A stretch of 29,385 bases of DNA from contig RFJG01000064.1 of the NCBI GenBank assembly GCA_003694965.1, positions 1 to 29,385 on the forward strand, written 5' to 3'. This stretch comes from Methanobacteriota archaeon (GTDB taxonomy: Archaea; Micrarchaeota; Micrarchaeia; Anstonellales; J096). The notes under the pieces were generated by a model that had not been told where the DNA came from, searched no databases, and worked only from the letters and a program-made list of their open reading frames with translations. Of the stretch, positions 1,753 through 23,274 are shown piece by piece. A program made the translations under genes and the position numbers. Every line of letters begins with the position of its first letter. Position 1 is the first letter of the stretch.

Positions 1753-2550
1753 TTAAAAGAGGAGGAAGTAGGCAAGAGAGACTATGAGTTGTGGGATGAG
1801 CATGGGGAGCAATGCGGGTATTGGCTTCCTTATCCTGAAGAGCCAGAGGAGCATCAGGAAATAACCAACTATAGATGTGGCAAGGAGCGTGTATGCTAAG
1901 TTGGGGGCTAGGGCATAGGCAGATATTGTCAATGCCGATGGCAATATTATGTCTCCCAAGCCCATCATCAAGCCAGCAAACTTGCCCTTCTTGGCTCTTG
2001 CTCCCTTGACTGTTGTTATCGTCATTGCAAGGTTGGTCTTCTCAACCTCTTCTGCCATGGCCACCATATGCTTTGTTATGAATACTGAGATAAAATCATA
2101 TGCGATGAGGACTAGTGAGAAGAATGCCAATGTGTAAAATGAGAAGGAGGTGCCTATGAAAAGAGAGCCCCCTACTGCTATTGTGAATGCTGTTAATTCC
2201 GTTACCCTCTCTCTTGCAATGACCCTCAAAAGAGTAAGGGCAATGGATAGTAGGATGGCTGTTGTTGTGTTGAATAAGAGGAAGTAAAATGTTATGAATG
2301 ACATCAACAATAGGGAGAGGAGCTCTATGAGTTTCATTATGATGGGCAGTTTCAAGACATTTAGAAAGACATAGACGGCTACGCTGCCTATTAGGAAGGC
2401 AGCTATGAGCGAGTATGTATTGGCTGGAGTAAATTGTTCCTGCTCTATTGGAAAGCTTGTAAATACCCTAATCCCCAAGAGGAATGAAATGCCCAGTATT
2501 AGGAACACCTTGATTGTATGCTCTACTAAGACCTTGCTGGCTACATCCAT
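1753..2550 (-). CDS. Presenilin/signal peptide peptidase family (A22) intramembrane aspartyl protease
   Basis: Multi-TM protein with YD (AYDFISV), GxGD (GLGDIILP) and PAL (PIPALLP) motifs in the canonical order. Confidence 0.93.
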   Translation of the reverse strand: MDVASKVLVEHTIKVFLILGISFLLGIRVFTSFPIEQEQFTPANTYSLIAAFLIGSVAVYVFLNVLKLPIIMKLIELLSLLLMSFITFYFLLFNTTTAILLSIALTLLRVIARERVTELTAFTIAVGGSLFIGTSFSFYTLAFFSLVLIAYDFISVFITKHMVAMAEEVEKTNLAMTITTVKGARAKKGKFAGLMMGLGDIILPSALTISAYALAPNLAYTLLATSIVGYFLMLLWLFRIRKPIPALLPMLIPQLIVSLAYFLLF

Positions 2551-2554
2551 GGGA

Positions 2555-4585
2555 TCACTCCAATAATCTCAGTATCCCTGGCCTTGGCTCATAGAGATCG
2601 CCATTTTTGAGCATCTTGCTTATCGTCCTCCTCACTTTGTACTCATCCATGCCATTTTGGACAGCCTCTTGGACAACAGCATCTATCTCAACAACATCAA
2701 CATTAGCTGAGATGCTCTTTATTATGTCAATTATCTCAGCAGCTATCTTCATCTCTCCTGGGCTCCTACCACTTGCTATTATGTCTGTAGAGATTATGTT
2801 GGTCTCCTTGTCCGTCATTATCTCGCTTATTACGTAGTTGAGGAGCATTTTGGCAGCTTCTGCATCCACCTCCTCCACAACAGAGCTAAGCCTTGCCTTG
2901 GCGTGCGCCTCTGCCATCCTTATTAAGCCTTCTAGATATCTTGGAGTTATTGGCACAGAACCTGTTTGTTCTCCCAACCTCCTCAAAGAAACATAGTAGT
3001 CTTTCAACACCTTAGAGGCCTCTATGCTTAGCACTGGGGAGATGTGCGACTTGGCATATGCTATGTACTTCCTAAGGAGCTCCTTGCTTATTGCTCTCCT
3101 GCTCCCTTCCCCTTCTTTCTCTTCGTGGGTTGAGCTGTGCATCTTAAGTATGTGTTCTGCCAACCTCTCATCTTTTGTTTCATTAAGTTCATCCAAAAGA
3201 GGGAATATGAGGTCAAAACGGCTCAACAAAGAAGGTGGTATGTTGAACTGATCTGGTATGTTCCTATTCTTGAGGAAGCGGCCGAGTTTGGGGTTGGCTG
3301 CCGCCACTATGGTTGTCTTTGCCTTGAAGGTAGCGACTATACCAGCCTTTGCTATACTCACTGTGCCGCTCTCCATGACCTCGTGCAACGAAGCCCTGTC
3401 CTCATCATCTATCTTGTCAAACTCGTCTATCGCAGCAACGCCGCCGCTAGCTAGGACAAGGGCTCCTGCCTTAAGAGTCCAACCACCCCCTGAGAGCTCA
3501 TCCTTCTCAGCGCTTGCTGTAAGGCCAACGCCGCTAACGCTCTTCCCGCTCACATAGACGCTCTTGGGAGCTATCTCACACATCTGCCTCAAGAACCTCG
3601 TCTTAGCTATACCTGGGTCTCCGACGAGCAATATGTGTATGTCATCCCTTATGGGCATCCCCCCTGGCGTTGTCTTGCCTTTCCTGCCTCCAAAAAGCTG
3701 GAGAGCAAGAGCAAGCTTTATCTCATCGTAGCCGTGTATATCCGGCGCTACAGAGTCCCTTATCTTGGAGACTATCTCTGGGTCTGATGCCAAGTTAAGT
3801 ATCTCTTCCTCCTCTTCTTTGGTTATCTCAAGCTCCTCAAAGTCCCTCTGTATCTTTTTTACGTGAGTTACCTCTACATACTTCTGGAATATCATATCTC
3901 CTTTGTTGTATTTCTTGGAGGGGTTTATGCGAAGTATGCCAGTTATCTCTACATTTTCTCCCGGGATTATGGTGTTAACAAGGTCATCCTCCAAGTTGAT
4001 GATTATCTTGGCTGCAGGAGTACCAGCAGTAACCCTCTCTAACGGATCTTGCACTTCAGCAACTTGGTAATCAACAAATGTTGCCTCGTCCAACCTTGCC
4101 CTCAAGAATGCTTTCTTACATGTTGGGCACTTTCCAGGAGTTGAGAAATTCCTGTCAACAATAAGTGGAAAGCGTTCAGCACAAGCCGGGCATTCAAAGA
4201 CCATACGCTTCGCCTTATGTATGACATCTCCTCTCCTTGTTATTAGGCCCTTGAAAACAAAGAGCTTGTTAAGGAAATGTGATCCTATGTTCTCTATTAG
4301 TAAGTCCTTGTCCGGGCAATTGTAAAACCTGACGTGCGGCCTAAACTCCTCTCCAGTTGCGTTGTGGAGGTTCATCTTCCTTATGGCTGCCTCTCCTCCC
4401 TTGATTGCCAGCGTTGGATGTTCCATAACTGCATCCGCGAGCTCTGCGTCAAACTTTTCCAATTCCTTCCAATCTATGTTTATGCTCCTCTTCTTTGGGT
4501 AGGTAACAAGGACGTTATTTATCTCTGCCATGTAGGATTTGGTAAAGAACCTGTCGAGCGCTTCTTGGAAAGAAATATCATCCAC
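2555..4585 (-). CDS. mcm: MCM replicative helicase, intein-free
   Basis: Zn finger CPAC..CPTC, Walker A GDPGIAKT, Walker B IDEFDK, SIAKAGI hairpin, arginine finger LLSRFD, C-terminal winged helix. GTG start. Confidence 0.98.
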   Translation of the reverse strand: MDDISFQEALDRFFTKSYMAEINNVLVTYPKKRSINIDWKELEKFDAELADAVMEHPTLAIKGGEAAIRKMNLHNATGEEFRPHVRFYNCPDKDLLIENIGSHFLNKLFVFKGLITRRGDVIHKAKRMVFECPACAERFPLIVDRNFSTPGKCPTCKKAFLRARLDEATFVDYQVAEVQDPLERVTAGTPAAKIIINLEDDLVNTIIPGENVEITGILRINPSKKYNKGDMIFQKYVEVTHVKKIQRDFEELEITKEEEEEILNLASDPEIVSKIRDSVAPDIHGYDEIKLALALQLFGGRKGKTTPGGMPIRDDIHILLVGDPGIAKTRFLRQMCEIAPKSVYVSGKSVSGVGLTASAEKDELSGGGWTLKAGALVLASGGVAAIDEFDKIDDEDRASLHEVMESGTVSIAKAGIVATFKAKTTIVAAANPKLGRFLKNRNIPDQFNIPPSLLSRFDLIFPLLDELNETKDERLAEHILKMHSSTHEEKEGEGSRRAISKELLRKYIAYAKSHISPVLSIEASKVLKDYYVSLRRLGEQTGSVPITPRYLEGLIRMAEAHAKARLSSVVEEVDAEAAKMLLNYVISEIMTDKETNIISTDIIASGRSPGEMKIAAEIIDIIKSISANVDVVEIDAVVQEAVQNGMDEYKVRRTISKMLKNGDLYEPRPGILRLLE

Positions 4586-6937: not shown

Positions 6938-6945
6938 TTTATATA
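6938..6945 (+). promoter_or_regulatory. TATA box for the giant gene; leaderless geometry
   Basis: TTTATATA lies 23 nt before GTG6969. Confidence 0.65.
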
Positions 6946-6968: not shown

Positions 6969-9900
6969 GTGAAAAGGCTGTTTTTCGCATTCCTGCTAAT
7001 AAGCATGGCATTCAGCGCAAACTTATTCATAAATGCTAGTGTAGGGGAGAGTAACACGAGCGTATGGATATTCCCCTACATATTCAATTCAACATCGCCC
7101 GTTAATGCTTTCAGCATGGCAGAAATAAGGAATTTTGATTTTAAGATAAATGCAATATCGCCCGATAAGAAAGATAGCGTCAATGTTGATTGCCATAATA
7201 AGCAACTACTCTCATCTACATTGAAAGTAGATGTTGGAGAGGTTATTCTCAACGGCGTTGAATGTAGCTTTCCTACGCCAGACATACTAAAAAATGGTTG
7301 TGGCTATGTTCAAGTTAGCAGCTCCGCAAACATAGGCGGGGAATTGGTAAAGGCTGGGCCATCACAAGTCATTGCTTGCTATGAAAAATTAAGCTACCCG
7401 GACAGGGCTGTCATAATCTCAAACCAAGGGCACTATGTTGATTTCACTAATCCCATATGCTTCACGGCATTGTTGGTAGCGGCGTTGTTCATAGCTGCAT
7501 TCTATGCAAAGGGAGGAGGAAGCATAACATCATTGTATGACCTCGTCTACCCAAGAATGCTTAAGATGCCTCAAGTTGCCTACACACTAAGAGGGCCGTC
7601 TCCAATAGGGGCACTGGCAAAGGGCCTCGCAAAGGGAAAGGCAGAAGCTCTTAACGCAGCAGCGCTTAGGTTGGGTCTTGGCGTGGGAGCTAGCGAAGAT
7701 ACAGTACTAGATGGGATAAGGAAGGCAGTGGGGAAGCCAGGAGCAACCATAGAGGACTTGGCAAATTTCTTCGCTGATGAGAAGAATAGGGAAATGTACG
7801 ATGATGCATATGGAGCTTTCCGTCTCTATATGACATACAAGAATATGGGAACTGGAAGCCTCGGCATAATCGGAAATAAGAGAGTGAAGAAAGTAGAGTG
7901 GGATTGGTACAAGAAATATGCAGGAAAAGTGAAAACGGGATGGGAAAAATTGCCAAGCCATGTAAGGACGCCGATAACGTGGAGCTTCTTGCCACTAAAG
8001 CACCTCTATAGAGGAGTGAAGATGGGTTTCTGGGGGATACGGGGCGCTGCGAGGCTCGTTGGGCAGATGTCTGGCGTAGTGCCGGCAGGTGCTGGATTTT
8101 ATAGGGGGATGAAGAGAGCAGAAATTGAGAAAGGCAAAAGGATACCATTAGAGGAAGGCAGTAAGGTAAGCAAATGGATTGGCAGTAAACTCAAGGCAAG
8201 CCATATGGCTATGTCAAAAGAGCACTTGCTTTGGAATCCCATAAAACACATAAATGCAGAAGCAAAAATCGCAGAGGAAGCCTTGATGGAACAGCTCTTT
8301 ATGAACGGCCTCTATTGGTTAGCAACAGAGGAGGGGAGAGCACACTATGCCAAATACTTGGAAGAGATGGGCAACATAGACATCGTTAATAAGAAGCGGG
8401 AGGAAAATGAAAAGCACGCAAGCAATGCAAGGAAAGAGTTGGAGGAGTTCTTCAAGAGCATAGAGAAGAGGGACATAGAGAGAATATGGGAGATGACAAG
8501 AGAGCTTAATGAAGCGAACTTGGATGCTTACCTTTCTCTTGTAGGAGGTTATAGCTCAGAATATGCGGAGTTAATAGGGAAACTCAGAGACATATACAGA
8601 GAGGGAGAGGAGAACATAAGGAACCTCTACCTCTTGGATTTTGTTGCTGATGAGTATGCTGACGGCATTAGAGAACTGGGCCTCCATTCAAGGTTCAGCA
8701 AGGATGAGGACATAATAACAAGAGAGGGTCTTGGCAACCTTGCCACTGAGAGTATGTACAACTACATGGAGTATGTGTATGGTGCACCAGACTACGAAAA
8801 GGCAGCAGCCAATGGTATTGATACTGCCATAGCGGAGGCCATAAATGCGATGTATGGGATAAGCTCAGAAGGGAACAACGTTGAGAGGTACTACAGCGCT
8901 ATGGACGAGAGAAATAGTTTTAAGAATGAAATAAAAAACGCTAAGGAGCATGATGAATGGGCAAGGTCTCTATTATCAAGAGTGTTTGAGAGGGAAGGAT
9001 TTACAGTAAGCGATAGGGAGCTCTATAAGTTCCTAAGTGCTAAACAAGAGCTGAAAGAGCACATAAGAAACTTGGCAGCGAGCGAAGATGAGAAAAGAGT
9101 AATGAAAAAGTTCGCGGATTACATAGCAGTGTCAGCAAAGACAAAGGTTAGGGAGCCTTGGAAAAAGAGCGCCATAGGGAAGAGGTGGAATTTCGTAACA
9201 AATGATATGGCGAAGAAAGCTGAGAAACTATCTTCCTCGTCTGTTGGGAAGGCAATAAGCTTGTTGTTTGATGAGTCTTTCAATACAAGAGTTGGGATGG
9301 CGTCAGCATTTGTGAAAGGAGAAAGAGGATATGTTGAGGGAGCAATAGGAACTGGCAAGGTCAGGGACATAAAAGCTGTAGAAGGGGAGATCAGCAAAAT
9401 AGTAGGGGACGCCATTAGTAGGATGGGTGTTAGCGCAAGCGCCTCATACTTGGATAACCTTAAGAACACCATAATGGTTGAGATTGTGAAGCAGGGAGGG
9501 GAAAATGCCAGTGCAATAAAGAGCATAATTGAAAAGAACTTGAGGGAGGTAGCTAGAGACTATGCCCGCACTGGGAAGAAGGTAGACAAGAAGATGCTCA
9601 AAGCACTTGAACAAGAAATACATAATATGGCAAAAGACATAGAAGCGGCTGCTGGAAACATAAGTAAATCCGGCACAATAGAAGTAAGGTATAGAACAGC
9701 TCTTGATGGAGAATACTCCATCAGGATTAGGAGCCTTATGACAATAGAGGCGTCAGATAGGAATTGGAAAGGATATGACAGCATAAGGACGACGAGAGAC
9801 CTTGCTATGCATTTTATGATATATGGAGCTAAGAAGTTGGGCGAGGAGAAGAGCTTGAAGGAAGTTATGGATTACTTGAGCGATGAGAAGAACTTAACAA

Positions 9901-12281
9901 TAGATGATTGGGAGATGAACCAGAGCATAAAGAGCGGGAAGCTTGCTTGGCTGGAAGTTGCTAACAGCATGTTTATGCCTATGTTTACTAACGGTTCCAA
10001 CAACGAATCTGTTGAGACTATAAATAAGCTGTTCAAGGATAAGAGCAGTATAGCATCAAAGTTTGAGGAGAGGGTTAAGCTCGGAGGAGTACTGAATACA
10101 ATAAGCAATATACCAGACCTAAAAGTAATAGGACTTGGCCAAATATACGCTGTTGCGAGCGTTAATGGAATACTCAATGTTGAAAAAAACTTGGAGATAT
10201 ATCCCTCATCAGTTGAAGACCTAAAAAGGATCTCTGCACTTCTTGAGAAGAGGGGCGATAGCGCAGGCGCCGCAGAGGTGCTCTTATTGGTTGACAAGAT
10301 CAACGATGAGAGCTTGAGCCACAACGACAGGGCAATAGTGAAGAAGGTTATGGAAAAAACAAAATCATTGATAGAGGAAGGGGAGCTAGACTTATTTGAG
10401 GCTGCTAGGATAGGTTATAGCTATGGACACAGCACTGGAGATTACAGCCTCGTCTTTAACAAGGACATAAGCGGCGTTGTGGTAGGAACAACAAGAGAAG
10501 TTGCTGACGAGATAAAGAGGGTTGGAGAGAGCGGCACAGGAGTAGCCAACAAAGTTAGCGTCCTTTTTGAGAATATGAAAATGAAAGGGGAGATGCTAAG
10601 GCAGGGAATAGGAGAGTCGCTGGAGGCTTTCTCTTTTGCTTTGATGCCTATGAGGGATGTTGAGATTTTCATGCCATACAATGAAGTTACAAAGCACCAC
10701 GCGTTGAGTGTTGTGGAGTATTTTGAGAAGGAACTCCGCAACCTTGACAATGAAAAGGCAGGTGCCAACAGCCTCCTCTCTAAATTAAAGGCAGAGGCAA
10801 AAGCCTTGAGAGTAAAGAAAAAGAACGACCCAACAAATACATTGCTGGCAAAACAGTTGGAGGACAAGGAAAAGGAGATAGAGAGAGCAGAGAAGGAAAT
10901 AAAGAGGCTGGAGAAGAAGAAGGAAAGGATAGAAGCTAGTAAGAAGAGCATAGATAGCTATATAGATAGTATGTCGTTCTACGCAACTAGGGATAATTTC
11001 TACATATACAATGGTTGGTTTGGCTCAAAGGAGGCCAGATTAGCTAAGCAGCAGCACATGAGAGGGACATATGCGGGAGGAGCACTCCTAACTAGAGACA
11101 TAATGCATAGTCAAGGGGGCATAACACTGAGGCCATCTGAGATACCCATGGGGTTCCTTACTAGCGGAGGCATAATGTTTAAGTTGATGAAATTAGGGGC
11201 TTTCATAGGAGAGCCTTTCAGGAAGTTCCAAAAACTCGCGAGTGAGGCGCTGCTCCAACCATACATAAGCCCGTCTGGATATGATGTGAAATACGAAGCA
11301 GATAGGGAGATGATGAAAAATAGTAGGAATGCTGGCATAGACAGCGCATTTATGGAGGGAGTGCAGAGGGCCAAAGATGTATATGAGCACCCACTAAAGC
11401 AAAGAGTTGATATGGCAAGGGCTAGGTCGTTGAGAGGGTTTGTAGAAACGATAACTGGGACGTTCCTGCCCATAGGAGCAATAGCAGCGGCGATAGCAAG
11501 TGGGCCTACAGCGACAATAACTGCGGGAGTTGCATTAGGAGCCTATCCTTTAGTTAATAAGCTATTCAAGAAAATGACTGGCAGCCCTTACAGCCTCTAT
11601 GAGTGGTTCTTAGACAGGTTTAGCAAGGAGACATTCAAGACAGCTATGGATTTGGAAGACCTAACTTGGAGGGCAACTGTTGGATTGGTTGACTACTCTT
11701 GGTACTCTAGAGAGATGGGGGAGGTTATGGGAGGAGGAGCGAAGGCCATCCCTGGCTTAAGCTATCACCAATACACTAGCGGGGAGTATGCACTTAATGA
11801 ACCAACAGCAATAGCATACAATAGGATGGCCAAAAATATGGGGCCCGGTTACAATCCTTTTGAAGTGCCCGAGAATAAGTATGGCTTTGGAGCTGTGAGA
11901 TACAATAAGAGTATATTGAGGAGAGTGGAGGAGCAGAACAAGGAAATGGAAGGAACTGGTCCTGCCTACAACTTCGCATTTGGGCTTTTCTCCCCCGCTC
12001 TATTCATAAACTATCTTACGCCCAAGATAACGAGGAAAGCAGCGATGTACAGGGCTATGCCTGGCAAGGCATTGGCAAAGGACTTAACAGCTGTTGCAAC
12101 AACTGCTGCAGCAATATACACTGTTGGACCCCTTGGGCCTCTTGCTATGGGAAGCGCTTATGTGGCTGCTGAGATGGGGATACATGGAGACAAAGTGCTA
12201 TGTCCAAGGTGTAGGAAAGAGAAGAAAAGAGGACAGCACTGTCCTGTATGTGGATTTAAGCCAGCATCGCCATCTATCTAA
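6969..12281 (+). CDS. Giant (1770 aa) membrane protein: signal peptide, small Cys-containing ectodomain, TM helix, long helical/coiled-coil body, C-terminal Zn ribbon
   Basis: Signal peptide MKRLFFAFLLISMAFSA; TM CFTALLVAALFIAAFYA (~7458-7508); coiled coil ~10720-10950; CPRC..CPVC at 12201-12251. No family recognised with certainty. Confidence 0.85.
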   Translation: MKRLFFAFLLISMAFSANLFINASVGESNTSVWIFPYIFNSTSPVNAFSMAEIRNFDFKINAISPDKKDSVNVDCHNKQLLSSTLKVDVGEVILNGVECSFPTPDILKNGCGYVQVSSSANIGGELVKAGPSQVIACYEKLSYPDRAVIISNQGHYVDFTNPICFTALLVAALFIAAFYAKGGGSITSLYDLVYPRMLKMPQVAYTLRGPSPIGALAKGLAKGKAEALNAAALRLGLGVGASEDTVLDGIRKAVGKPGATIEDLANFFADEKNREMYDDAYGAFRLYMTYKNMGTGSLGIIGNKRVKKVEWDWYKKYAGKVKTGWEKLPSHVRTPITWSFLPLKHLYRGVKMGFWGIRGAARLVGQMSGVVPAGAGFYRGMKRAEIEKGKRIPLEEGSKVSKWIGSKLKASHMAMSKEHLLWNPIKHINAEAKIAEEALMEQLFMNGLYWLATEEGRAHYAKYLEEMGNIDIVNKKREENEKHASNARKELEEFFKSIEKRDIERIWEMTRELNEANLDAYLSLVGGYSSEYAELIGKLRDIYREGEENIRNLYLLDFVADEYADGIRELGLHSRFSKDEDIITREGLGNLATESMYNYMEYVYGAPDYEKAAANGIDTAIAEAINAMYGISSEGNNVERYYSAMDERNSFKNEIKNAKEHDEWARSLLSRVFEREGFTVSDRELYKFLSAKQELKEHIRNLAASEDEKRVMKKFADYIAVSAKTKVREPWKKSAIGKRWNFVTNDMAKKAEKLSSSSVGKAISLLFDESFNTRVGMASAFVKGERGYVEGAIGTGKVRDIKAVEGEISKIVGDAISRMGVSASASYLDNLKNTIMVEIVKQGGENASAIKSIIEKNLREVARDYARTGKKVDKKMLKALEQEIHNMAKDIEAAAGNISKSGTIEVRYRTALDGEYSIRIRSLMTIEASDRNWKGYDSIRTTRDLAMHFMIYGAKKLGEEKSLKEVMDYLSDEKNLTIDDWEMNQSIKSGKLAWLEVANSMFMPMFTNGSNNESVETINKLFKDKSSIASKFEERVKLGGVLNTISNIPDLKVIGLGQIYAVASVNGILNVEKNLEIYPSSVEDLKRISALLEKRGDSAGAAEVLLLVDKINDESLSHNDRAIVKKVMEKTKSLIEEGELDLFEAARIGYSYGHSTGDYSLVFNKDISGVVVGTTREVADEIKRVGESGTGVANKVSVLFENMKMKGEMLRQGIGESLEAFSFALMPMRDVEIFMPYNEVTKHHALSVVEYFEKELRNLDNEKAGANSLLSKLKAEAKALRVKKKNDPTNTLLAKQLEDKEKEIERAEKEIKRLEKKKERIEASKKSIDSYIDSMSFYATRDNFYIYNGWFGSKEARLAKQQHMRGTYAGGALLTRDIMHSQGGITLRPSEIPMGFLTSGGIMFKLMKLGAFIGEPFRKFQKLASEALLQPYISPSGYDVKYEADREMMKNSRNAGIDSAFMEGVQRAKDVYEHPLKQRVDMARARSLRGFVETITGTFLPIGAIAAAIASGPTATITAGVALGAYPLVNKLFKKMTGSPYSLYEWFLDRFSKETFKTAMDLEDLTWRATVGLVDYSWYSREMGEVMGGGAKAIPGLSYHQYTSGEYALNEPTAIAYNRMAKNMGPGYNPFEVPENKYGFGAVRYNKSILRRVEEQNKEMEGTGPAYNFAFGLFSPALFINYLTPKITRKAAMYRAMPGKALAKDLTAVATTAAAIYTVGPLGPLAMGSAYVAAEMGIHGDKVLCPRCRKEKKRGQHCPVCGFKPASPSI

Positions 12282-12288
12282 CATACGA

Positions 12289-15200
12289 TTAATCCTTGAA
12301 CCTCTTTATCCTCCTCTTGGGGATTTCCTTTTTCTTGAATAGCCTGTCCTTATAGAGGTAGAGACCAGCACCGATTGCTATTACCCCCAATACCGCATAG
12401 GGGTAGTAGTCGCTCAAGTCCTTCATTGGAGGCGCTAAGTTGGCTGCGTTCTTCTTCATCTGGGAAGTGATGCTCAACACCTTGACATACTGTCCCTCAT
12501 CCAAAGCGCTCTTCGCAAGGGAGAGGCTCTTGCCGTACTGCTCCTCACTTATGCCAGAGCTCCTCAAATAGTTCTCCGTGTTGTCTATCTCTGAAGAGGC
12601 TGCTTCCTTCAAGGAATCCTTAGCTCTGTTGATCTCCGACAGGAGGGACTCGCCTTTCTTTGTTAGCATTGCCTTTTGCCTCGCTGTTTTGGCAGATGAT
12701 ATTAGCTTAAGCTTGTTCTTGAAGTAAGAAGAGGAAAATGGCAAATATTCTTCCAGATCGTTCTTCTTGGCTTCTCTCTCCATCTCCTCGTAGCCAGCTA
12801 TGGCATCTGAGAGCTTTGCCATTACAGAAGAGTATGCCATATCTATGTCCTTGCTCTTGTCCTTGTAGCTCCCTACGATGGCCTCCGCACTATCCAGTGC
12901 CTTAGCAGCCTTAGAGAGTGAAACTATATCATACGAGCTCTTGGCCTTCCTGTGCTCTGCCTCAAACTCCTTGAAGGAGTCCTCTAGCGTTGTGTTCTTT
13001 GGCATTGATTTGAGATAGTCCTTCTTGAGGTTGTAGTATTTCTTCCATAGCTGAGATGAGGTAAGGGACACATAGCGCTTAACCCAACTCTTATCATATG
13101 TGGATGCGTTGCTAGTTTCCAGCTCCTTCTCCTTGTCTGAGAGCTCTGAAGACAAACTACTTCCAACAGAAACTGCTTTTTTGAGGTTTGCCACATCAGC
13201 CTCTATTGTTTTTTGGAGCTCTTCCTCAACTGCTTTCTTCTCCTCACTTATCTTATTGTCTTTTTCTATTGTGTCTGATAGGTTCTTAGCCTTTTCCAAA
13301 GCCACATCATAGAAGCCAGAGACCTGTAAATTCTTTATCTCCTGTAATGTGTCGTTGTACTCTGGAGCAGCTGTGCTCTCTAATGATGTGAGGAGTGTTG
13401 AGAGCTCTTTGTTGACATCGTCAACCTTTGTCTTCAATGTGAAAACATATGTTTTTCCTGCCTCAAGATTACTTAAAACAAGGGAAGAACCCTCCATCTC
13501 ATAGGATGGGCCATCCTCTACCTCATAACCATTTATGTTGACAACTGCCCTAGTTATGTCGTATTGTGGAGAGATGGTCATCTGCTCCCTGCATAGTGTC
13601 TCGCCAGAAGTTGTAGCACAGGACAACGTAGTGTTGGAGATGTCTAAGAGTTTTTTCTTTTCTAGCATTTTTATTGTGTGGAAGCCTTTGTCAAGATTAA
13701 TCGTTTTTCGCGTTCCCTTGAATTGCCCATCAACATAAACAGAGCAGTCGCAACCAACATCCAAAGTGGAGTCAACAATAGCTTCAACATCATACTCCCT
13801 GCTAAGTTGTCCCTCCTCTCCATCTGCTTCCGCACTCTCATTAAGGGAGATCTGCCTTATGAATTTGTCCTTCTTAACTATGTCAGCTGTAAGGGACTCA
13901 TACGGCTCTATGTAGGGGATCCTCCACAGTATGTTGTCTCCTGTTATGACATAGCCCCTATCAACGTTGACCTCTTCTGTATAAAACTCTCCTTGTATGG
14001 GGATCGTTTTCTCAACATCAGTGAAGCGGTAGTTGAGAGGATTAGTAATTATCGCCCTTGCTTCAAGCGTTCCTTCCTCATCTATGGAGACAAGAGGCCT
14101 ATCATACATTAGCTCTACCTTGACGGCTGAGAAGGAAGTGGCCAAGCGCTCTTCTATCGTTGATATGCTATCCTTGTAGAAATTCTCCAACTCCAACAGC
14201 TTGCCCATATTGCTCCTTATGAAGTCACTATCTACTTTTACGGCATTGCCCTCCAATGTGGTTTTCTTGGAAGCTATGTCGCTATACGTGCCAGTTGCCA
14301 TCAAACTCTCCAACTCTTCTTTGTATGTCTGAAGAGAGGAGAAGCGTGAGTAGGCCTTGGAAAGTATTGAATCCTCTACAGAAGACAACAAGGCATACTT
14401 ATCTATGTATGACTTGGAGGAGCTGTCTATTGAAGATAGTTGGGATTTCTCTAATGAAACATCCAATCCATCCTTAGATGCTCGCGATAGGAGGTCCTTA
14501 ACCTCATCAACCAATGAGAGGTACTCGTCTTTTTTCATAGGTGGTTTTGCCGCAACAGCATCCAACATGCTGTCTATGCGGACATACTCCTTATAGCGGG
14601 AGCCGAGTTTTGGTTCTCCGTCTGCATTGGAAAGCATATCCTTGTATTTCTCGACATCATAGCCTTGGGAAAGCAAGCTGTCCATCTTGGAAATGAGCCT
14701 CTCCCTGAATTTTGAGAGGACTGTCTTGGCATGCTCAACTATGTGTGGCTCTTGAGAGAGGAGCTCATTATATGTGGAGAGCCCCTCATATATATCATAA
14801 GAGTAGTTGGCAGCCCCTATTGACTCCATACTATCTATAGTTGAGAGGAAAAGTTCCGCGGATTTAATGTTATTGTCTAAGTCGTTGTATTCCTCGGCGA
14901 CTGTCTTTGTAGAGGAGACCGCCCCTTCTAAGTAAAGGGCATCTATATAGAAAGCCTCCTGCCTATATGCCTCTAACCTCTTCTCTTTCATATAATCAAT
15001 CCTCGTGGAGAGGTTGAGCTTCATCGCCTCCACATCTGTGTAGTAAGTTGCTAAATCGCTATTATATGTATCGGCCAATGAGGAAACTCTTGTTGTGAAA
15101 TTGTGCGCTTTCTCTATAATGTCAAAGGCGTCGCCAAAATAAGGATAATCCTGTCCTTCCAAGTCCTTGGATGTGTTAGTTATTGCTAAAAGCTCCCGGC

Positions 15201-16158
15201 CATTGTATTGGATAGATGAGAGCTCCTCTTTCAGCGTAGCGCAAGATACTGCCCCAGGACCTGTGTAGTCTTTGTTGCAGAAACCCCTGTTGGAAGCATC
15301 CTCATACATAGATATGAGTTCCTGCCTAGCTAAATCTGCATTCTGTATGGCTAGCGACATCGCATCTTGTGTACCTGCCCACGCAAGCTTGTACTTGTCA
15401 GAGTAGAGCTTACACGATGTCTTGGCATCTGTTATAGAAGAGAGGCCGTCCAACACAATTTGGCCTACATCACTCACAAGAAGCACGGGGTTTGCTGTTG
15501 CGATGGCTGCAGACATTAGTAGGAAAGATGGCAACTCAGAGGATGTCAAGGAACGTGTGTTGCCAGAGCTAACAAGCCTATAATGTGTCGTGTAATATGT
15601 ATGGGTCTTATTGTTTACTGTCTTCGTGTGGCTTGTCTCGTACGTATCAACATAATAGCCAAGGGATGGCTCCATTACTGAATTGTAGGAAGATAGGGAA
15701 CTAAGTTGGGATTCCGACATAGAAGTGAGTGAACTTGTTAGAGGGTCCAAAAATGAACCCTTCATATCTATGGTCTTGTCTAAGTTGAATATGAACATTG
15801 CATCACACACATTGTAGTGGGAGATGGCTGCCTGAGCCTCTGCTTTGGCAGCACTAAGGCTATCATATATGCTACTATTGAGGTATGTTGGTATGTCATA
15901 AGCAAGCAATGGGTTGAGGTTGTTCCTCGTAGCTGTCGGATTTGCTATGAGTTGCCCATCAAGGTAGGTGTAGTATTTCCAGGAGGGGTCGTTGAGTTTT
16001 AGGGTAATCTGGGGGTTGAGGGGTTCGGAGTAATTATACTGCATAGTTAGAGGAGAGCTTGTTGTTGGTGTTGTTGGTGTTGTTGAAGAGCCATTTGAAC
16101 CAGAAGCAAAGAGAAGGCTAAGCATAAGGATAAATGTCAGCATATGAGTGAATCTCAT
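12289..16158 (-). CDS. Large (1289 aa) secreted, C-terminally anchored surface protein with coiled coils and a central beta-rich region
   Basis: Signal peptide MRFTHMLTFILMLSLLFA, S/T/P linker, at least a dozen N-x-S/T sequons, C-terminal TM YAVLGVIAIGAGLYLY and basic tail KKKEIPKRRIKRFKD. Confidence 0.85.
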   Translation of the reverse strand: MRFTHMLTFILMLSLLFASGSNGSSTTPTTPTTSSPLTMQYNYSEPLNPQITLKLNDPSWKYYTYLDGQLIANPTATRNNLNPLLAYDIPTYLNSSIYDSLSAAKAEAQAAISHYNVCDAMFIFNLDKTIDMKGSFLDPLTSSLTSMSESQLSSLSSYNSVMEPSLGYYVDTYETSHTKTVNNKTHTYYTTHYRLVSSGNTRSLTSSELPSFLLMSAAIATANPVLLVSDVGQIVLDGLSSITDAKTSCKLYSDKYKLAWAGTQDAMSLAIQNADLARQELISMYEDASNRGFCNKDYTGPGAVSCATLKEELSSIQYNGRELLAITNTSKDLEGQDYPYFGDAFDIIEKAHNFTTRVSSLADTYNSDLATYYTDVEAMKLNLSTRIDYMKEKRLEAYRQEAFYIDALYLEGAVSSTKTVAEEYNDLDNNIKSAELFLSTIDSMESIGAANYSYDIYEGLSTYNELLSQEPHIVEHAKTVLSKFRERLISKMDSLLSQGYDVEKYKDMLSNADGEPKLGSRYKEYVRIDSMLDAVAAKPPMKKDEYLSLVDEVKDLLSRASKDGLDVSLEKSQLSSIDSSSKSYIDKYALLSSVEDSILSKAYSRFSSLQTYKEELESLMATGTYSDIASKKTTLEGNAVKVDSDFIRSNMGKLLELENFYKDSISTIEERLATSFSAVKVELMYDRPLVSIDEEGTLEARAIITNPLNYRFTDVEKTIPIQGEFYTEEVNVDRGYVITGDNILWRIPYIEPYESLTADIVKKDKFIRQISLNESAEADGEEGQLSREYDVEAIVDSTLDVGCDCSVYVDGQFKGTRKTINLDKGFHTIKMLEKKKLLDISNTTLSCATTSGETLCREQMTISPQYDITRAVVNINGYEVEDGPSYEMEGSSLVLSNLEAGKTYVFTLKTKVDDVNKELSTLLTSLESTAAPEYNDTLQEIKNLQVSGFYDVALEKAKNLSDTIEKDNKISEEKKAVEEELQKTIEADVANLKKAVSVGSSLSSELSDKEKELETSNASTYDKSWVKRYVSLTSSQLWKKYYNLKKDYLKSMPKNTTLEDSFKEFEAEHRKAKSSYDIVSLSKAAKALDSAEAIVGSYKDKSKDIDMAYSSVMAKLSDAIAGYEEMEREAKKNDLEEYLPFSSSYFKNKLKLISSAKTARQKAMLTKKGESLLSEINRAKDSLKEAASSEIDNTENYLRSSGISEEQYGKSLSLAKSALDEGQYVKVLSITSQMKKNAANLAPPMKDLSDYYPYAVLGVIAIGAGLYLYKDRLFKKKEIPKRRIKRFKD
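16060..16085. repeat. Coding 9-bp tandem repeat (TGTTGTTGG, about 3 copies) encoding a TTP linker
   Basis: Read directly; encodes STTPTTPTTSS just after the signal peptide of 12289..16158. Confidence 0.7.
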
Positions 16159-17544: not shown

Positions 17545-18378
17545 TTGGGAATAGAAGAGAGGGAGTTCCTAGAAGAACTGGTAGTTGATAGAACATACAT
17601 AAGAGTAAATACGCTCAAAGTTAGCCTAAGCAGGTTCTTGAAGAACACGGAGTTGGAGTTGTCAAAAACAGGATACAAGTACGGCTACAGAGTAGAGGGG
17701 GATGTAAAAATAGGGAAGACGATGGAATACTTCTTGGGTTACCTGCATACGCAATCCCTCTCCTCCATGATGCCCGTCCTCGCATTTAGCTCTTGGAAGG
17801 ATAACATAGAGGTGCTTGATGCAGCAGCCTCTCCTGGAGGTAAGACAAGCCAGATAGCACAACACACCTCCAACAAAGCAGCTATAACAGCCATAGACAA
17901 GAGAACGGGCAGGATCTCATTGCTAGTCTCTAATTTGGAGAGGCTCGGCGTTGTCAGTGTAAATGTAGTGAGAAGAGATAGTAGAAAGCTGCCTTGGAAA
18001 AATACATTCAACAAGGTCTTGGTAGATGCTCCTTGCTCATCCCTTGGCTCTTCATTGTTCGCATTGAGAAAGACGACACATAGGAGGGTTAGGGATATGG
18101 CAAGAGTGCAGAGGAAGATGCTCCTATCCGCATTTGATGCTCTCAAAGAAGGAGGAGAGCTTGTATACAGTACTTGCACAATAACAGAAGAGGAGAACGA
18201 GGCAGTAGTGGCCAACTTGCTAGAGAATAGGAGTAATGCCACTATAGAGAGAGTTAAGCTGCCGATAAGGCATAGCAAGGGATTAGAGAGCTATGAGTTC
18301 AGCGACAAGGTTGCCCGCATATACCCTTGGGAGGTTGAGAGCGAGGCATTCTTTGTTGCGAGGATTAAGAAGAGCTAA
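17545..18378 (+). CDS. RsmB/NOL1/NOP2/Sun family RNA m5C methyltransferase
   Basis: SAM motif VLDAAASPGGKT, motif IV DAPCS and motif VI YSTCT..EENE, with both catalytic Cys present. The start may lie upstream, since the frame is open from 17485. Confidence 0.93.
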   Translation: MGIEEREFLEELVVDRTYIRVNTLKVSLSRFLKNTELELSKTGYKYGYRVEGDVKIGKTMEYFLGYLHTQSLSSMMPVLAFSSWKDNIEVLDAAASPGGKTSQIAQHTSNKAAITAIDKRTGRISLLVSNLERLGVVSVNVVRRDSRKLPWKNTFNKVLVDAPCSSLGSSLFALRKTTHRRVRDMARVQRKMLLSAFDALKEGGELVYSTCTITEEENEAVVANLLENRSNATIERVKLPIRHSKGLESYEFSDKVARIYPWEVESEAFFVARIKKS

Positions 18379-19556
18379 TACCTTATCGCCTCAAGTGGGG
18401 ATATCTTTGTTGCCCTGCGCGCTGGGAGGATACCACCTAGGACTCCGACAACAACACCTATGATAAGAGCGACCACAACTTGTATTATGCTTATGGAGAA
18501 GGGCACGACAGAAGATGCAACAATACCTATGGCAATAGCTACCAATAACCCAGCAATAGAGCCTATCAACGACAACAACACAGCTTCTGTCAAGAAGAGC
18601 AGGAGTATTGTTTTTTGCTTAACGCCGACAGCTCTCATAATGCCGATCTCCCTTTTTCTTCTCAATACGGAAGTAAACATTGTATTACCTATGCCCACGG
18701 CACTAACGAGGCTTGCTATGAGGCCAACTGCCACAGCCCCAAGGTATATTATGTTGAGTATGTTCCCCGTTGTCTCTTGAAAAAATTCCTGCGTTATTAT
18801 CGTGAAGTCTTTTTTGTCAACAGTTAGGCCGTGTTTCCTTGCGAGGAACTCTTCTACTTCTTTCTTAGCCTTTGCGGTGTCCGTACCATCCACTAAGTCT
18901 ATCCCTATAAAGCTTATGTCATCTTTCTTCAAGCCTATGTTTGGCCCATCCTTGAAATTTATGAATATAGCCTCATCATCTGAGCTGGAGAATGCCTGCC
19001 CTATCTCCTTTATCGTTCCAACAACGCGGAACTTCCGCCCATTTATTGTCAGGCTTTTGCCCGGATAGACAGTTTTTGAGAATAGCTTGTGCGCCGCCTT
19101 TCCTCCCAAGACTGCAACATACCTCTCATTATCAGAGAAAAAGCGGCCCCTCTCTAATTTATAGACATCTTTCCATTGGCTGAAAAAAGCCGCTGTTGTG
19201 ACATAGATTGTTGATTCTATCTCTTCATTCTCAAACTTTATCCTCTCTTTTGAGAATGTCCCATAACTGACACTGTCAACAAATGAGAACCTCCTCAACT
19301 CTGTAGCATCTGACAATGAAAGCGAACCAAAACCTGAGAAGGTATTACTTATGTCGCTTATTGGAGCAATTATCATCTTGTCAGTTCCGAACATAGCAAA
19401 TAGCTCGTTAGCTTGGTCTATGAGGCCTTGCCCTATCCCTATTATGAGCACTGCTGTCAGTACTCCTAAGAACACACCTATAAGCGTTAGGCTGCTCCTT
19501 ATGGCATCGCTTTTTAGGGATTTATAGGCTATTGCTGCTATTTCCTTCCTCTTCAT
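18375..19556 (-). CDS. ABC transporter permease, MacB/FtsX family
   Basis: N-terminal TM (RSSLTLIGVFLGV), large extracytoplasmic loop (GRFFS), VGIGNTMFTSVLRRKREIGIMRAVG, and C-terminal PARRATKISPLEAIRY. Confidence 0.93.
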   Translation of the reverse strand: MKRKEIAAIAYKSLKSDAIRSSLTLIGVFLGVLTAVLIIGIGQGLIDQANELFAMFGTDKMIIAPISDISNTFSGFGSLSLSDATELRRFSFVDSVSYGTFSKERIKFENEEIESTIYVTTAAFFSQWKDVYKLERGRFFSDNERYVAVLGGKAAHKLFSKTVYPGKSLTINGRKFRVVGTIKEIGQAFSSSDDEAIFINFKDGPNIGLKKDDISFIGIDLVDGTDTAKAKKEVEEFLARKHGLTVDKKDFTIITQEFFQETTGNILNIIYLGAVAVGLIASLVSAVGIGNTMFTSVLRRKREIGIMRAVGVKQKTILLLFLTEAVLLSLIGSIAGLLVAIAIGIVASSVVPFSISIIQVVVALIIGVVVGVLGGILPARRATKISPLEAIRY

Positions 19557-20758
19557 TATTCATACCTCATAGCTTCCGCTGGGCTTATGGAAGTGGTTGT
19601 TCTCGCTGGCAAGTAAGAGGCGATAGCTCCTGCCAACGCAAGTATTACAGTAGCTACAATTATCAATGGGAGGTTTGCCTCAAAAGGAACGATGCCTTGT
19701 AAGATGCCGATAACCAAGCCGATAAAGCTTCCTACGACACTCCCGATGATGGCTAGCATCACCCCTTCAAAGACAAATAACCTTACCACTTCTTTGTTTT
19801 TCACCCCCAATGTCTTCAGTAAGCCAATCTCTCTTCTCCTATCTATTATATTCATATACACTGTGTTTGCTATTCCAACAATACCAACAAGCAACGCCAT
19901 AGCAGAGACAGCTATGAAGAAAGCCTCCAACATAGAGGTAAGTTTTCCTATCTGTTCTCCTATGAATTTCGCAGTAATTACTGTGTATGTCTTTTTGTCT
20001 CCAACTCTTTTTGTTATTGCTAGCATGTTGTCTATGTCTTTTGCTACCTTCTCTGAATCATAGCCGTCCCTGACCTTAGCTGCTATTGTCAACACTTCGT
20101 TTTTCTCAAACCTGTTAGGGAAAAGCTTCCTAACGGTGTCCTTCCTAATGAAGACTCTGTCATCTATGCGTGCAAGGGAGTTGCCGCTTTCCTTAAGTAT
20201 TCCGACAACTCTATAGAGTTCTCCCTCTATCTCAACTTTCTTATTTACTTGCAGTTCTTCTGAAAAGAGCGTCTTCGCTATGGAACTGCCCAACACTATG
20301 TCGTGGCTCCCTTCTATCCACCTCCCCTCATTTATTTTGAGGCTCGGCGTTATGTCTATGTATTCCTTGTCTATGCCAACGACATTTGCCTTCTTGCTAG
20401 CATTTTTGTAAGTAATCTCTACCAAACCAGCTAATAAGCCGGTTGCTCTCTCAACCCCTTGGATATGGAGGACTCTCTTCACATCGTTTTCGGTGAATTT
20501 CTGCTTTAATGGTATGAAATTCTGCCTTTGCGAAGCCACAAAGATGTTCTCACTTACTTGTGTCGGCACTATTATGACAAGTTGAGTCCCGAAGCTTGTC
20601 GCAGACGTAGTTACTTCTTTTTGGAGACCAGAGGCTAGGCCCGTCAATGCAGCAATGCTAAAAGCCCCTATGGCTATCGCTACTATTGCTAGCAATGTCC
20701 TTAACCTGCCCAGCCCCAAGGACCTAACTCCATACTCTGCTATTGTCTTATTTTCCAT
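19556..20758 (-). CDS. ABC transporter permease, MacB/FtsX family
   Basis: RTLLAIVAIAIG, GIANTVYMNIIDRRREIGLLKTLG and PARTTTSISPAEAMRYE. Confidence 0.93.
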   Translation of the reverse strand: MENKTIAEYGVRSLGLGRLRTLLAIVAIAIGAFSIAALTGLASGLQKEVTTSATSFGTQLVIIVPTQVSENIFVASQRQNFIPLKQKFTENDVKRVLHIQGVERATGLLAGLVEITYKNASKKANVVGIDKEYIDITPSLKINEGRWIEGSHDIVLGSSIAKTLFSEELQVNKKVEIEGELYRVVGILKESGNSLARIDDRVFIRKDTVRKLFPNRFEKNEVLTIAAKVRDGYDSEKVAKDIDNMLAITKRVGDKKTYTVITAKFIGEQIGKLTSMLEAFFIAVSAMALLVGIVGIANTVYMNIIDRRREIGLLKTLGVKNKEVVRLFVFEGVMLAIIGSVVGSFIGLVIGILQGIVPFEANLPLIIVATVILALAGAIASYLPARTTTSISPAEAMRYE

Positions 20759-22208
20759 GTTTCTTTTTTCCTTTTAGGTAGTACCAGCCACCCGCTCCTA
20801 CTGCTATCACTGCAACTATTGGCAATAGCAGGTCTTGCTTTCCCTTTTCCGGCTCTTCTATGCTCAACTCAAATTCCTTGGTAAGAGTGTATGTCTTCCC
20901 AGAAGGGTCGCTGTACTTGACGCTCACGTTGGCTTTGCCGTTGTTGACATCCTTAACCTTTATTTTGAATTGTTGGCTACTAAAATCATCTGGCTCCAAG
21001 GACCCTATGAACCTCTCCTTTTGTATGTCTAACACATCAAAGGCGTCAGAGCTAATAGCAACAGACACTCCCGAAATGCGGTAAGATGCCTTGTTTGCAA
21101 CAACAACTGAGAGGCTGTGTTCCCCTTTCTTTCTCAATGGCAATGGCGTTGCTTCCAAGAACACACCTATGGCGTTCCCTGCCTTCACTGATATGGGGAC
21201 GCTCACTTCTGTGCTCTTTTCTTTGCCTTCTTCTTTCCAGTTTATTGTGAATTTCACAGGGTTTTTTCCTGGACTCAATGTCGTATATGCGTTGACGGCT
21301 ATGCTCTTCTTTTCCCCCACTCCGATCTCTCCTATGTATAGCTCGCTTATTCCGGGGAAGACGAGGTTCTCATCCGCTTTTATGCGCACATCACTTGCCC
21401 TACTCCCCCTGTTTTCCAAGACAAGTTTTAGCTTTTCCTCCTCTTTATGCGTTATCTCTCCATCCTGTACTATTGTAAATCGCGTTGATTGCTTACTCAC
21501 TGTTATAGGCAAGCTTATGCTAACACTGTGGTCTCCTCCTATTCTATCCTTATAATCCACAACAAAGGAGACGGTGTTCACACCTTCGTTGAGGAGAGAT
21601 GCGTCGTAGCTCACATTCTTTTCCTTACATCCATCTACATCTCCCAAGAATGCCTTGCCGCCCTCTAGTGAGAGGGTTGTTGAGCTAACATATACATCTC
21701 TTGCTATGCCATTTTCAGCACACACAACCATAGATGTTTTCCCTTCTTTATTGATTTCTTTTGGGTTTAGCTCTACTGTCATTGACGGAGTCTTTACTAC
21801 CTTTACAGGTATTGATGTTCTTGTTGTGGCAACTTTTGAGTTTGTTGTGCTCCCCTTCTCAACAAGTGCAGAGCCCCCTATTTCTAGAGAGATGGAGTAT
21901 ATGCCTTCCTTTGCTTCCTTGTCTATGTTTAGCGGTATGGAAACTGCCATAGTTCCCTTGCTTATCTTCCCTATGTTGATAGTCTTTGTAGCTATTGGAG
22001 AGCTAGCTTTAACATATACTGATTCAAATCCAACAAGCGTCTCCGTACTACTTACAGGATAGTCAAAACTTATGTTCAAGTTAAGTACTCCCTGGTCTCC
22101 TGGTTCGTAACTAACCTTATCAGTGCTGTAGCTACTTACAGTTATTCCGTATGTCAAGTAGCTAACAGACAACAACAGCACAAAAAGTGCCATAATTCCT
22201 TTTTTCAT
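20748..22208 (-). CDS. COG1361-like S-layer-domain (Ig-like repeat) protein with C-terminal membrane anchor
   Basis: Signal peptide, repeated beta-sandwich motifs (IGSLEPDDFSSQQFKIKV, VKYSDPSG), C-terminal TM and basic tail, and the typical position beside a MacB-type ABC transporter. Confidence 0.85.
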   Translation of the reverse strand: MKKGIMALFVLLLSVSYLTYGITVSSYSTDKVSYEPGDQGVLNLNISFDYPVSSTETLVGFESVYVKASSPIATKTINIGKISKGTMAVSIPLNIDKEAKEGIYSISLEIGGSALVEKGSTTNSKVATTRTSIPVKVVKTPSMTVELNPKEINKEGKTSMVVCAENGIARDVYVSSTTLSLEGGKAFLGDVDGCKEKNVSYDASLLNEGVNTVSFVVDYKDRIGGDHSVSISLPITVSKQSTRFTIVQDGEITHKEEEKLKLVLENRGSRASDVRIKADENLVFPGISELYIGEIGVGEKKSIAVNAYTTLSPGKNPVKFTINWKEEGKEKSTEVSVPISVKAGNAIGVFLEATPLPLRKKGEHSLSVVVANKASYRISGVSVAISSDAFDVLDIQKERFIGSLEPDDFSSQQFKIKVKDVNNGKANVSVKYSDPSGKTYTLTKEFELSIEEPEKGKQDLLLPIVAVIAVGAGGWYYLKGKKKHGK

Positions 22209-22918
22209 CTTCTCACCTTCTTTCTTTTATGGTTATTACCATCCTTCTCAATCTTTCCATCTTTTATGTGCACAACCCTACTGCTATAAGCAGCTATGTT
22301 GGGATCGTGCGTAACAACAACGAGTGTCTTTCCTTCCTCATTCAAGTCTTCAAATATTGCAAGAACTTCCTCAGCTGTCTTTGAGTCCAAGTTTCCTGTC
22401 GGCTCGTCTGCAAGTATAAAAGATGGCTCCATTGCAAGAGCCCTTGCTATAGCTACTCTTTGCTGTTGCCCTCCGCTGAGCTGGCTAGGCCTATGTTCTG
22501 CCCTTTCTTTTAGTCCGAGGTCTGAGAGGAGCTCCATTGCCTTCCTTCTTGCTTCCTCTCTGTCTATGTCATATGCAAGGAATGGTAGCATCACATTCTC
22601 AACAGCAGTGAACGATGGCAGGAGGTTATAAGCTTGGAATACAAACCCTATCTTCCTCCCTCTGATGTCCGCTCTTGTATCCTCATCTAACTTGGAGACG
22701 TCCTTCCCATCTATTCTTATTTTTCCTCCTGTTGGCTCATCCAGCAACCCCATTATGTGGAGGAGAGTGCTTTTACCACTCCCAGACGGCCCAAATATAG
22801 ACACCATCTCCCCCTTCTTTATTGATAGGGAGATCCCTCTTAATGCAACTGTCTCAACATCTTCGTTCCTGTAAACCTTCTTTATGTTCTCTAATTCGAT
22901 TACTGCTTTGGCACTCAT
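22205..22918 (-). CDS. ABC transporter ATP-binding protein (LolD/SalX-like)
   Basis: Walker [10 protein letters not shown], signature LSGGQQQRV, Walker B ILADEPT, H-loop VTHD. Confidence 0.97.
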
Positions 22919-23274
22919 GCTACCAACTCCCTGAGGAATTCCCCTATTGGGTTATTGTTGAGGTATTTCTTAAGGCGCTTGAGGACATCTTTACCTCTGC
23001 TACTAGCTTTATAGAGGACTCTTCTCCCCTCCTTTCTCTTTGTGACGAGCTTGAGTTTTTCCAACTCTGCCAACATAGGGTAGATGCGCGATGCCTTTAC
23101 AGTGCCCAAGTCAAGGGATTCCATCCTCTTAATTATGCCATAGCCGTGCATCTCCTCCTTTGAGAGCATCCACAGCAATAGTGAGAAGTAAAACTTCCTA
23201 ACTATGAGTTGTGACATTGGCTTTTTCTTATCTAAGAATAACTTGTGAACTCTCCTTATGGCATCTCTATCCAT
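22915..23274 (-). CDS. PadR-family transcriptional regulator
   Basis: LLWMLSKEEMHGYGIIK..IYPMLAELEKLKLV..RRVLYKASSRG matches the PadR wHTH pattern. First gene of the ABC operon. Confidence 0.9.
   Translation of the reverse strand: MDRDAIRRVHKLFLDKKKPMSQLIVRKFYFSLLLWMLSKEEMHGYGIIKRMESLDLGTVKASRIYPMLAELEKLKLVTKRKEGRRVLYKASSRGKDVLKRLKKYLNNNPIGEFLRELVA

Follow-up and report, generated by a model that had tools for sequence, protein, structure and literature searches.

The longest open reading frame (ORF) of a 644-kb micrarchaeal assembly encodes what is, as judged from profile comparisons, a divergent member of a Micrarchaeota-restricted protein superfamily of about 1,400–2,600 amino acids (aa) with two conserved terminal modules. 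It lies at 6969–12281 on the forward strand of the window, which here means the whole analysed stretch of 29,385 nucleotides (nt) from contig RFJG01000064.1 of assembly GCA_003694965.1 (Micrarchaeota, Anstonellales; 644,393 bp over 87 contigs; completeness 85%). The gene is a single uninterrupted frame of 1770 aa with a GTG start, and a profile search of the genome’s contigs found it to be single-copy. A preliminary description, made from the DNA letters alone, had regarded this protein, hereafter the giant, as an orphan, a view that no longer holds, given homologues in 128 of 301 Micrarchaeota genomes. Its predicted architecture, a bitopic type I protein with a small ectodomain, one true transmembrane (TM) pass and ~1,550 cytoplasmic residues, is well supported, and the function tentatively preferred for it is that of a membrane scaffold that would couple an extracytoplasmic lipoprotein partner to cytoplasmic components. 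The features of the gene are as follows, with the evidence in brackets (AF2, AlphaFold2; pLDDT, predicted local distance difference test).

6938..6945, +, TATA-box-like TTTATATA, 24 nt ahead of the GTG start (matching motif and spacing before the PadR gene)
6969..12281, +, whole gene, 1770 aa plus stop, P0001 (ORF and profile search)
6969..7028, +, signal peptide-like N-terminus, aa 1–20, predicted possible cleavage after AFSA (hydrophobic residues 1–26)
7020..7391, +, ectodomain, one Ig/FN3-like beta-sandwich, aa 18–141, with 4 Cys and 3 sequons (AF2, VIA-align, AFDB)
7452..7583, +, superfamily signature, TM helix aa 162–186 plus motif SLYDLVYPRMLKMP...Y aa 188–205 (profiles, hhalign)
7602..7853, +, small basic helical domain, aa 212–295 (AF2 pLDDT 76–88)
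7854..10208, +, variable helical body without Cys, aa 296–1080, of low conservation across genera (alignments, AF2)
10209..10508, +, conserved helical domain, aa 1081–1180, with a GD.S...GT motif and clade-invariant G1173 (AF2 pLDDT 81–88, alignments)
10686..10988, +, K/E-rich antiparallel coiled-coil hairpin, aa 1240–1340 (AF2 pLDDT about 90)
10989..12188, +, conserved C module, aa 1341–1740 (hhalign against 19 diverse superfamily C-termini)
11436..11546, +, Gly/Ala-rich hydrophobic segment 1, aa 1490–1526, turning at a central SGP and bordered on either side by basic residues (hydrophobicity)
12081..12188, +, Gly/Ala-rich hydrophobic segment 2, aa 1705–1740, turning at a central GPLGP and bordered by basic residues (hydrophobicity)
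12195..12257, +, C-terminal zinc ribbon CPRC-x9-CPVCG, aa 1743–1763 (AF2 pLDDT 76–79; Pfam)

A word-indexed search of 5.8 billion proteins recovered only the giant itself, and a feature search of the ESM Atlas with the giant recovered nothing. Six-frame HMMER searches of related genomes gave weak, colinear matches in ORFs of 1,644–2,402 aa, and a common plan was found in 12 of 12 homologues: a signal peptide, a Cys-containing ectodomain, a TM helix, an L(F/Y)DLxxP(R/K) motif, a divergent middle and a conserved C-terminal region, to which most of the 12 add a zinc ribbon. Moreover, a C-terminal profile run against 1.84 billion cluster representatives matched only 30 proteins, which with few exceptions are 1,575–2,624 aa long. 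The distribution was then described by family (f), genus (g) and genome (G) in the 301-genome sample, in which f1 is the Anstonellales family of the giant’s own genome, f6 is Ca. Anstonellaceae of the same order, and G001 is a hot-spring genome of the same genus. A profile of the f1-type N module, built without Anstonellaceae sequences, matched an Anstonellaceae-only profile with an hhalign probability of 98.5% (E 1.6e-15) over the end of the ectodomain, the TM helix, the motif and the helices that follow. The N-module profile accounts for the 128 genomes matched in the sample; its matches, nearly always in ORFs of 1,500–2,400 aa, extend over every Anstonellales family (f1 13/13, f6 22/23, f9 62/65, six smaller families 9/9) and several other families of the class, while none was obtained in f13 (0/75), f14 (0/54) or f17 (0/15).

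For the C module, a direct hhalign comparison of the f1 and Anstonellaceae types failed (3%). Homology is nevertheless supported transitively, because both types match a profile of 19 diverse C-termini (f1, probability 98.2%, E 6e-14; Anstonellaceae, 98.5%). The giant thus possesses the N module, in which the superfamily form of the motif is a juxtamembrane L(F/Y)DLxxP(R/K)LP after the Cys-containing ectodomain, the C module, characterized in the superfamily by RD..., GY(P/D)..Y, W..PG..Y.D... and E..GY.P, and a size of 1770 aa with a variable helical middle free of known domains. In many Anstonellales genomes, a second match covers only the TM helix and motif, in ORFs of about 1,200–1,400 aa and up to 2,670 aa, which suggests one or more putative paralogous subfamilies having just the membrane signature in common; f1 genomes usually carry one match. 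The superfamily is undescribed in the literature searched, as no description of it was found in studies of Anstonellales genomics (PMC12892359), of the cultured ARM-1 (PMC8784108, PMC11329633) or of DPANN protein families (PMC8204110).

In almost every sequence feature the architecture agrees with the preliminary description, whose ORF, signal peptide-like start, ectodomain with four Cys and three sequons, TM helix from Cys164, SLYDLVYPR and Ala/Gly/Lys/Glu-rich helical body were all found where it had placed them. All family members begin with a hydrophobic signal peptide-like segment. In the giant, the ectodomain Cys lie at 75, 99, 111 and 137 and the sequons at N22, N29 and N40, i.e. three in 143 aa, compared with seven in the other 1,590 aa, roughly the chance number estimated from composition. 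The ectodomain was modelled with pLDDT 65–83 and strands in 89 of 124 residues, the confident sandwich spanning 18–138, and it matches FN3/Ig domains with VIA-align Z of 8–9.2 and, in AFDB clusters, Ig-like entries as well. A strongly hydrophobic segment spans 156–187, the TM helix, also delimited as 164–186, begins at or near Cys164, and SLYDLVYPR follows at 188–196; in an alignment of 21 members, D191 is invariant and P195 nearly so.

The protein as a whole is rich in A, K, E, L and G (9.7, 8.8, 8.4, 8.1 and 8.1%, respectively) and basic (isoelectric point, pI, 8.9), with a pI of 9.8 in residues 187–460 after the TM helix. AF2 was run on both halves with alignments of 20–21 sequences, and in the resulting low-confidence model 72% of residues 186–1740 would be helical. 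The strong coiled coil noted earlier is recovered as the antiparallel hairpin at 1240–1340, whose fold matches only generic helical hairpins (Z about 11, the helical noise level being about 13). No internal duplication between the two halves was detected, and the variable body has no Pfam match. The C module, with the motifs RD..., GYD..YE.D, WYS..G....PG.SY..YT.G....EP (1578–1612) and E..G.GP.YN......SP, was not folded by AF2 (pLDDT <50). The zinc ribbon, whose CPxC-x9-CPxC core occupies 1745–1761, gave weak zinc-ribbon matches in Pfam (E 0.005–0.009) and is found in many, not all, superfamily members. Neither conserved module could be explained by Pfam, NCBIfam, PHROGs or PDB sequence profiles, which returned nothing but coiled-coil or zinc-ribbon noise, and fold searches (VIA-wide twice, Foldseek against PDB, AFDB clusters, and the Atlas twice) found no more than an Ig-like sandwich of generic type and some helical hairpins, with Atlas TM-scores all about 0.2 and Foldseek E>=0.16.

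The topology is well supported by several features. Apart from the Cys4 zinc ribbon at the far end, Cys and the enriched sequons are confined to the ectodomain, and Cys is absent from residues 165 to 1744. In the metagenomic member P0017, ankyrin repeats are inserted in the variable body at roughly aa 950–1060 (Pfam E 6e-13), which counts for a cytoplasmic body; this insertion is the sole recognisable accessory domain in about 60 members. The hydrophobic C-terminal segments at 1490–1526 and 1705–1740, the second of which is weaker and lies under the 1.3 Kyte-Doolittle threshold, bear basic residues on both flanks, in accordance with the positive-inside rule. Because Anstonellaceae-type members, P0028 and P0029 have no C-terminal hydrophobic segment and retain a homologous C module, the C module must share the cytoplasmic side with the body; the hydrophobic segments are therefore in-in hairpins or not inserted, and a single true membrane pass remains. 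From its sequence, segment 1 is probably an in-in membrane hairpin. The earlier proposal that this is a type I protein whose cytoplasmic portion is very large is thus supported, whereas its count of one TM helix stands for the true pass and had overlooked the two Gly/Ala-rich segments and the C-terminal zinc ribbon.

The gene is also strongly conserved. For the homologue pair G014/G016 of genus g5, whose genomes (0.5–0.6 Mb) are the smallest of family f1, the ratio of nonsynonymous to synonymous substitution rates (dN/dS) is 0.088 over 2,401 codons, compared with 0.03–0.19 in five flanking genes, and by region it is 0.05 for the ectodomain, 0.04 for the TM helix and motif, 0.11 for the body and 0.05 for the C module. 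The giant is present in six of six g5 genomes. On these substitution patterns, it is a real, constrained and essential-looking gene. It occupies about 0.8% of a ~0.65–0.75-Mb genome, a share that exceeds 1% in the relatives with the smallest genomes; selection on it matches in strength that on housekeeping genes, and it is universal in Anstonellales, yet both of its modules are invisible to family and fold libraries, which places the superfamily among the clearest lineage-defining dark matter of Micrarchaeota.

A candidate partner has emerged from the Anstonellaceae loci, where a 735-aa Cys-rich secreted protein overlaps the stop of the giant gene and matches SLT at 24.5 bits, with a Pfam cut-off of 21.3. 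A lipoprotein profile built from this protein and two f1 homologues matches 125 of 301 genomes, in families almost the same as those of the giant, again with 0/75 in f13, 0/54 in f14 and 0/15 in f17. By comparison of coordinates, the lipoprotein gene is directly downstream of the giant gene in most listed genomes, including those of f1 genera g4 and g6, and the f1 partners retain the region aligned to the SLT motif. In the giant’s own genome (G000), a 5′ fragment of the lipoprotein gene is present at contig C20:15–560(−) (locus L105), where it is cut by the contig edge, and the remainder was not found in the assembly; relatives of this fragment have a lipobox-type N-terminus. What lies downstream of the giant gene in the window is a convergent gene for a 1289-aa surface protein, not the lipoprotein. 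The outcomes that the preliminary description had named as speaking against it, assignment to a known housekeeping family or a broad presence in free-living archaea with no link to the envelope, were not encountered, and the lipoprotein, with its matching phyletic profile, supplies such an envelope-gene link. In the Anstonellaceae loci (L018 11150–16086; L019 2–4858), four tandem paralogous secreted proteins of 300–465 aa are encoded divergently upstream of the giant, one of them showing weak Cys-knot-toxin-like Pfam noise; no equivalents occur near the giant gene in the window.

In the scaffold model, one Ig/FN3-like ectodomain would sit beneath the surface layer (S-layer), and the conserved TM helix and ectodomain end would bind an extracytoplasmic partner, most likely the co-inherited Cys-rich lytic-transglycosylase-like lipoprotein. 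The long cytoplasmic rod and the C module would recruit or position cytoplasmic components, and the C-terminal hairpins would bring the far end back to the inner face of the membrane, so that intracellular events might become coupled to a surface glycan-cutting enzyme. A bolder extension, possible if rather doubtful, would make the giant and the glycanase-like lipoprotein the central parts of an undescribed Micrarchaeota-specific trans-envelope apparatus, in which the 200-kDa scaffold would position or gate a surface glycan cutter that remodels the cell’s own envelope or attacks, or attaches to, the wall of a partner, and the C module would represent a novel fold that has an activity of its own. 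Knowing the roles of the giant and its glycanase-like partner would bear on how these ultrasmall archaea build or use their envelopes and on whether they interact with walled partners.

Several observations weigh against the scaffold model. The lipoprotein gene is unlinked in nine of nine genomes searched of genera g1, g2, g3 and g5 (in G001 the two genes share a contig but are 95 kb apart; in the others they are on separate contigs), so adjacency is not universal and lends no local support, and the f1 partners, including those of these four genera, fall below Pfam significance for SLT. Finding the giant and the lipoprotein together in genomes that are related does not count as independent evidence. 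To our knowledge, Micrarchaeota are without murein, and an SLT-like enzyme would lack its usual substrate there. No Pfam domain at E<=1e-4, and no recognisable client-binding domain, was found in 40 further diverse members; the ‘helical rod’ rests on low-confidence models, with mean pLDDT of 50–51 for the two halves; and the source hot-spring DNA metagenome is the only public run containing the gene, which gives no expression support. Because the two genes are separated in this sub-clade, it offers a natural test of joint function.

It has also to be considered that the giant acts without the lipoprotein, as an envelope or membrane skeleton whose Ig-like domain links a helical lattice under the membrane to the S-layer or pseudo-periplasm, with both ends of the protein at the membrane, and which keeps shape, division site or membrane integrity in ultrasmall thermophilic cells. 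This is rather unlikely on balance. A single-copy gene that is strongly constrained over its whole length, kept and even longer in the smallest genomes, and standing alone with its own promoter in its own clade would fit such a role, as would an N-terminal TM helix combined with C-terminal hydrophobic hairpins with basic flanks; however, many members are without the hairpins, no repeats or lattice-forming domains were detected in the duplication test or in the 40 diverse members, and the tight phyletic and positional tie to the lipoprotein elsewhere favours a joint function. Cryo-electron tomography of ARM-1 (PMC11329633) shows unexplained stacks of filaments close to the membrane, together with large protein cages, which a skeleton could accommodate if the superfamily occurs in ARM-1, a cultured micrarchaeon that clusters with the Micrarchaeum lineage in the published genome tree. 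A device for host contact, such as a conduit, a secretion apparatus or a membrane-remodelling machine at the symbiont–host interface, appears distinctly unlikely. The confinement of the superfamily to a DPANN phylum with small genomes, its evolutionary coupling to a surface glycanase-like lipoprotein and the four paralogous secreted proteins flanking the giant in Anstonellaceae loci point in that direction, and there is precedent in the large proteins that have been linked to host interaction in Nanohaloarchaeota and suggested to serve it in Sukunaarchaeum (10.1101/2025.05.02.651781). On the other hand, the exposed part is only about 125 aa, insufficient to cross the S-layer, and there is one true TM helix, with no ATPase and no channel-like polytopic part. 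Furthermore, no host is known, and the biosynthetic capacity of Anstonellales is reported to be comparatively large (PMC12892359). A variable host-recognition surface is likewise disfavoured, as the ectodomain is a single ~125-aa Ig/FN3-like sandwich under strong purifying, not diversifying, selection (dN/dS 0.05).

Highly improbable is a membrane-inserting or pore-forming protein in the style of alpha-pore-forming toxins, type III secretion system (T3SS) translocators, colicins or phage tape measures, in which the coiled-coil hairpin delivers the Gly/Ala-rich hairpins into a target membrane. The succession of a coiled-coil hairpin and small-residue hydrophobic hairpins recalls such proteins, and IpaB, AhlC and colicin Ia are among the top structural rows, but these matches are generic, with Z below the helical noise level given above and Foldseek E all >0.1. 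In addition, the segments are cytoplasmic to a stop-transfer TM helix, leaving no export route, and many homologues are without the hairpins while retaining the flanking C module. The specific candidates of an alpha-pore-forming toxin or T3SS translocator, already disfavoured, were rejected on the generic fold match and on the lack of hairpin conservation across the superfamily. A phage tape-measure protein was also rejected, as there is no PHROG match or viral context and the neighbours are MCM, PolD, GatD and rRNA methyltransferase genes, not tail genes.

Known systems close in layout to the proposed scaffold include HubP, FimV and TspA, polar hub and landmark proteins of Gammaproteobacteria that have a small wall-binding domain, one TM helix, a huge cytoplasmic scaffold and a conserved C-terminal module and that recruit clients to a membrane site. 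The giant is similarly bitopic, with a small extracytoplasmic domain, one TM helix, a large cytoplasmic part and a conserved C-terminal module. There is, however, no homology: Pfam and NCBIfam find neither LysM nor the FimV C-terminal domain in the giant, the ectodomain of which is Ig/FN3-like, and the hubs are acidic and repetitive, whereas the giant is basic and comes from an archaeon without murein. Specialised lytic transglycosylases are tied to membrane machines, namely VirB1 with the type IV secretion system, EtgA with the T3SS, and FlgJ, and FtsEX controls the hydrolases EnvC and PcsB. These systems resemble the giant and its candidate partner in that a surface glycan cutter is genetically coupled to a membrane component reaching the cytoplasm; in contrast to them, the micrarchaeal pair has no ATPase, polytopic channel or secretion-system genes, is unlinked in a sub-clade, and includes a partner whose SLT assignment is weak. 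HMW2 of the Mycoplasma attachment-organelle cytoskeleton is also a very large coiled-coil or helical cytoplasmic protein beneath the membrane of a minimal-genome organism, but it is not homologous and has no signal peptide, ectodomain or TM helix, all of which the giant possesses.

Very large, lineage-restricted and unannotatable membrane or surface proteins kept in tiny genomes are also represented by the SPEAREs of Nanohaloarchaeota, by eight >1,000-aa helical membrane proteins of Ca. Sukunaarchaeum (10.1101/2025.05.02.651781) and by large SLT-domain proteins of Pace- and Woesearchaeota (PMC8204110), none of which showed sequence similarity to the giant in protein searches. SPEAREs lie mostly outside the cell and carry domains for serine protease, adhesion and restriction-endonuclease functions, whereas the giant is mostly cytoplasmic and has no such Pfam domains. 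At least four TM helices are present in each of the Sukunaarchaeum proteins, compared with one in the giant.

In the window, the neighbours of the giant gene include MCM, PolD DP1/DP2, GatD, an RsmB-type rRNA methyltransferase and a presenilin-like peptidase; relatives of the MCM protein all carry the label Ca. Micrarchaeota/Micrarchaeia. No conserved neighbourhood was found around the giant gene in the sub-clade loci compared, except MCM and the presenilin-like peptidase at the genus level. In two same-genus genomes (L009 3102–6050; L011 2947–5801), MCM and the presenilin-like signal-peptide peptidase are directly upstream of the giant and co-directional, and in the window (1753–4585, −) this pair is inverted, at a distance of 2.4 kb, so that the synteny is genus-level only. 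On the other side, the convergent gene at 12289–16158(−), with its stop codon 7 bp from that of the giant gene, encodes the 1289-aa protein, which has a signal peptide, an S/T- and sequon-rich body and a C-terminal TM helix with a basic tail, a layout of archaeal surface-anchored proteins; it belongs to no Pfam or NCBIfam family and has no BLAST match among related loci. An open-ended ORF of 363 aa at 28297–29385(+), running past the contig end, combines a signal peptide and a TM helix with a Cys-containing ectodomain rich in S, T and P. It was rejected as a paralogue of the giant (hhalign probability 4.8%), and the profile search of the genome yields one copy only.

The preliminary description had also credited the giant gene with its own TATA box. 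The box TTTATATA lies 24 nt ahead of the start, and its motif count in the window (3, with 1.2 expected) is by itself not significant; an identical box occurs 24 nt ahead of the PadR gene (23298–23305, −; gene at 23274), which agrees with that claim. This spacing implies a predicted leaderless or near-leaderless mRNA for the giant. The PadR gene belongs to a co-directional block at 18375–23305(−), comprising the PadR regulator, an ABC ATPase, a 486-aa protein of no assigned function and two MacB_PCD/FtsX permeases, and this block and the giant gene have equal promoter geometry.

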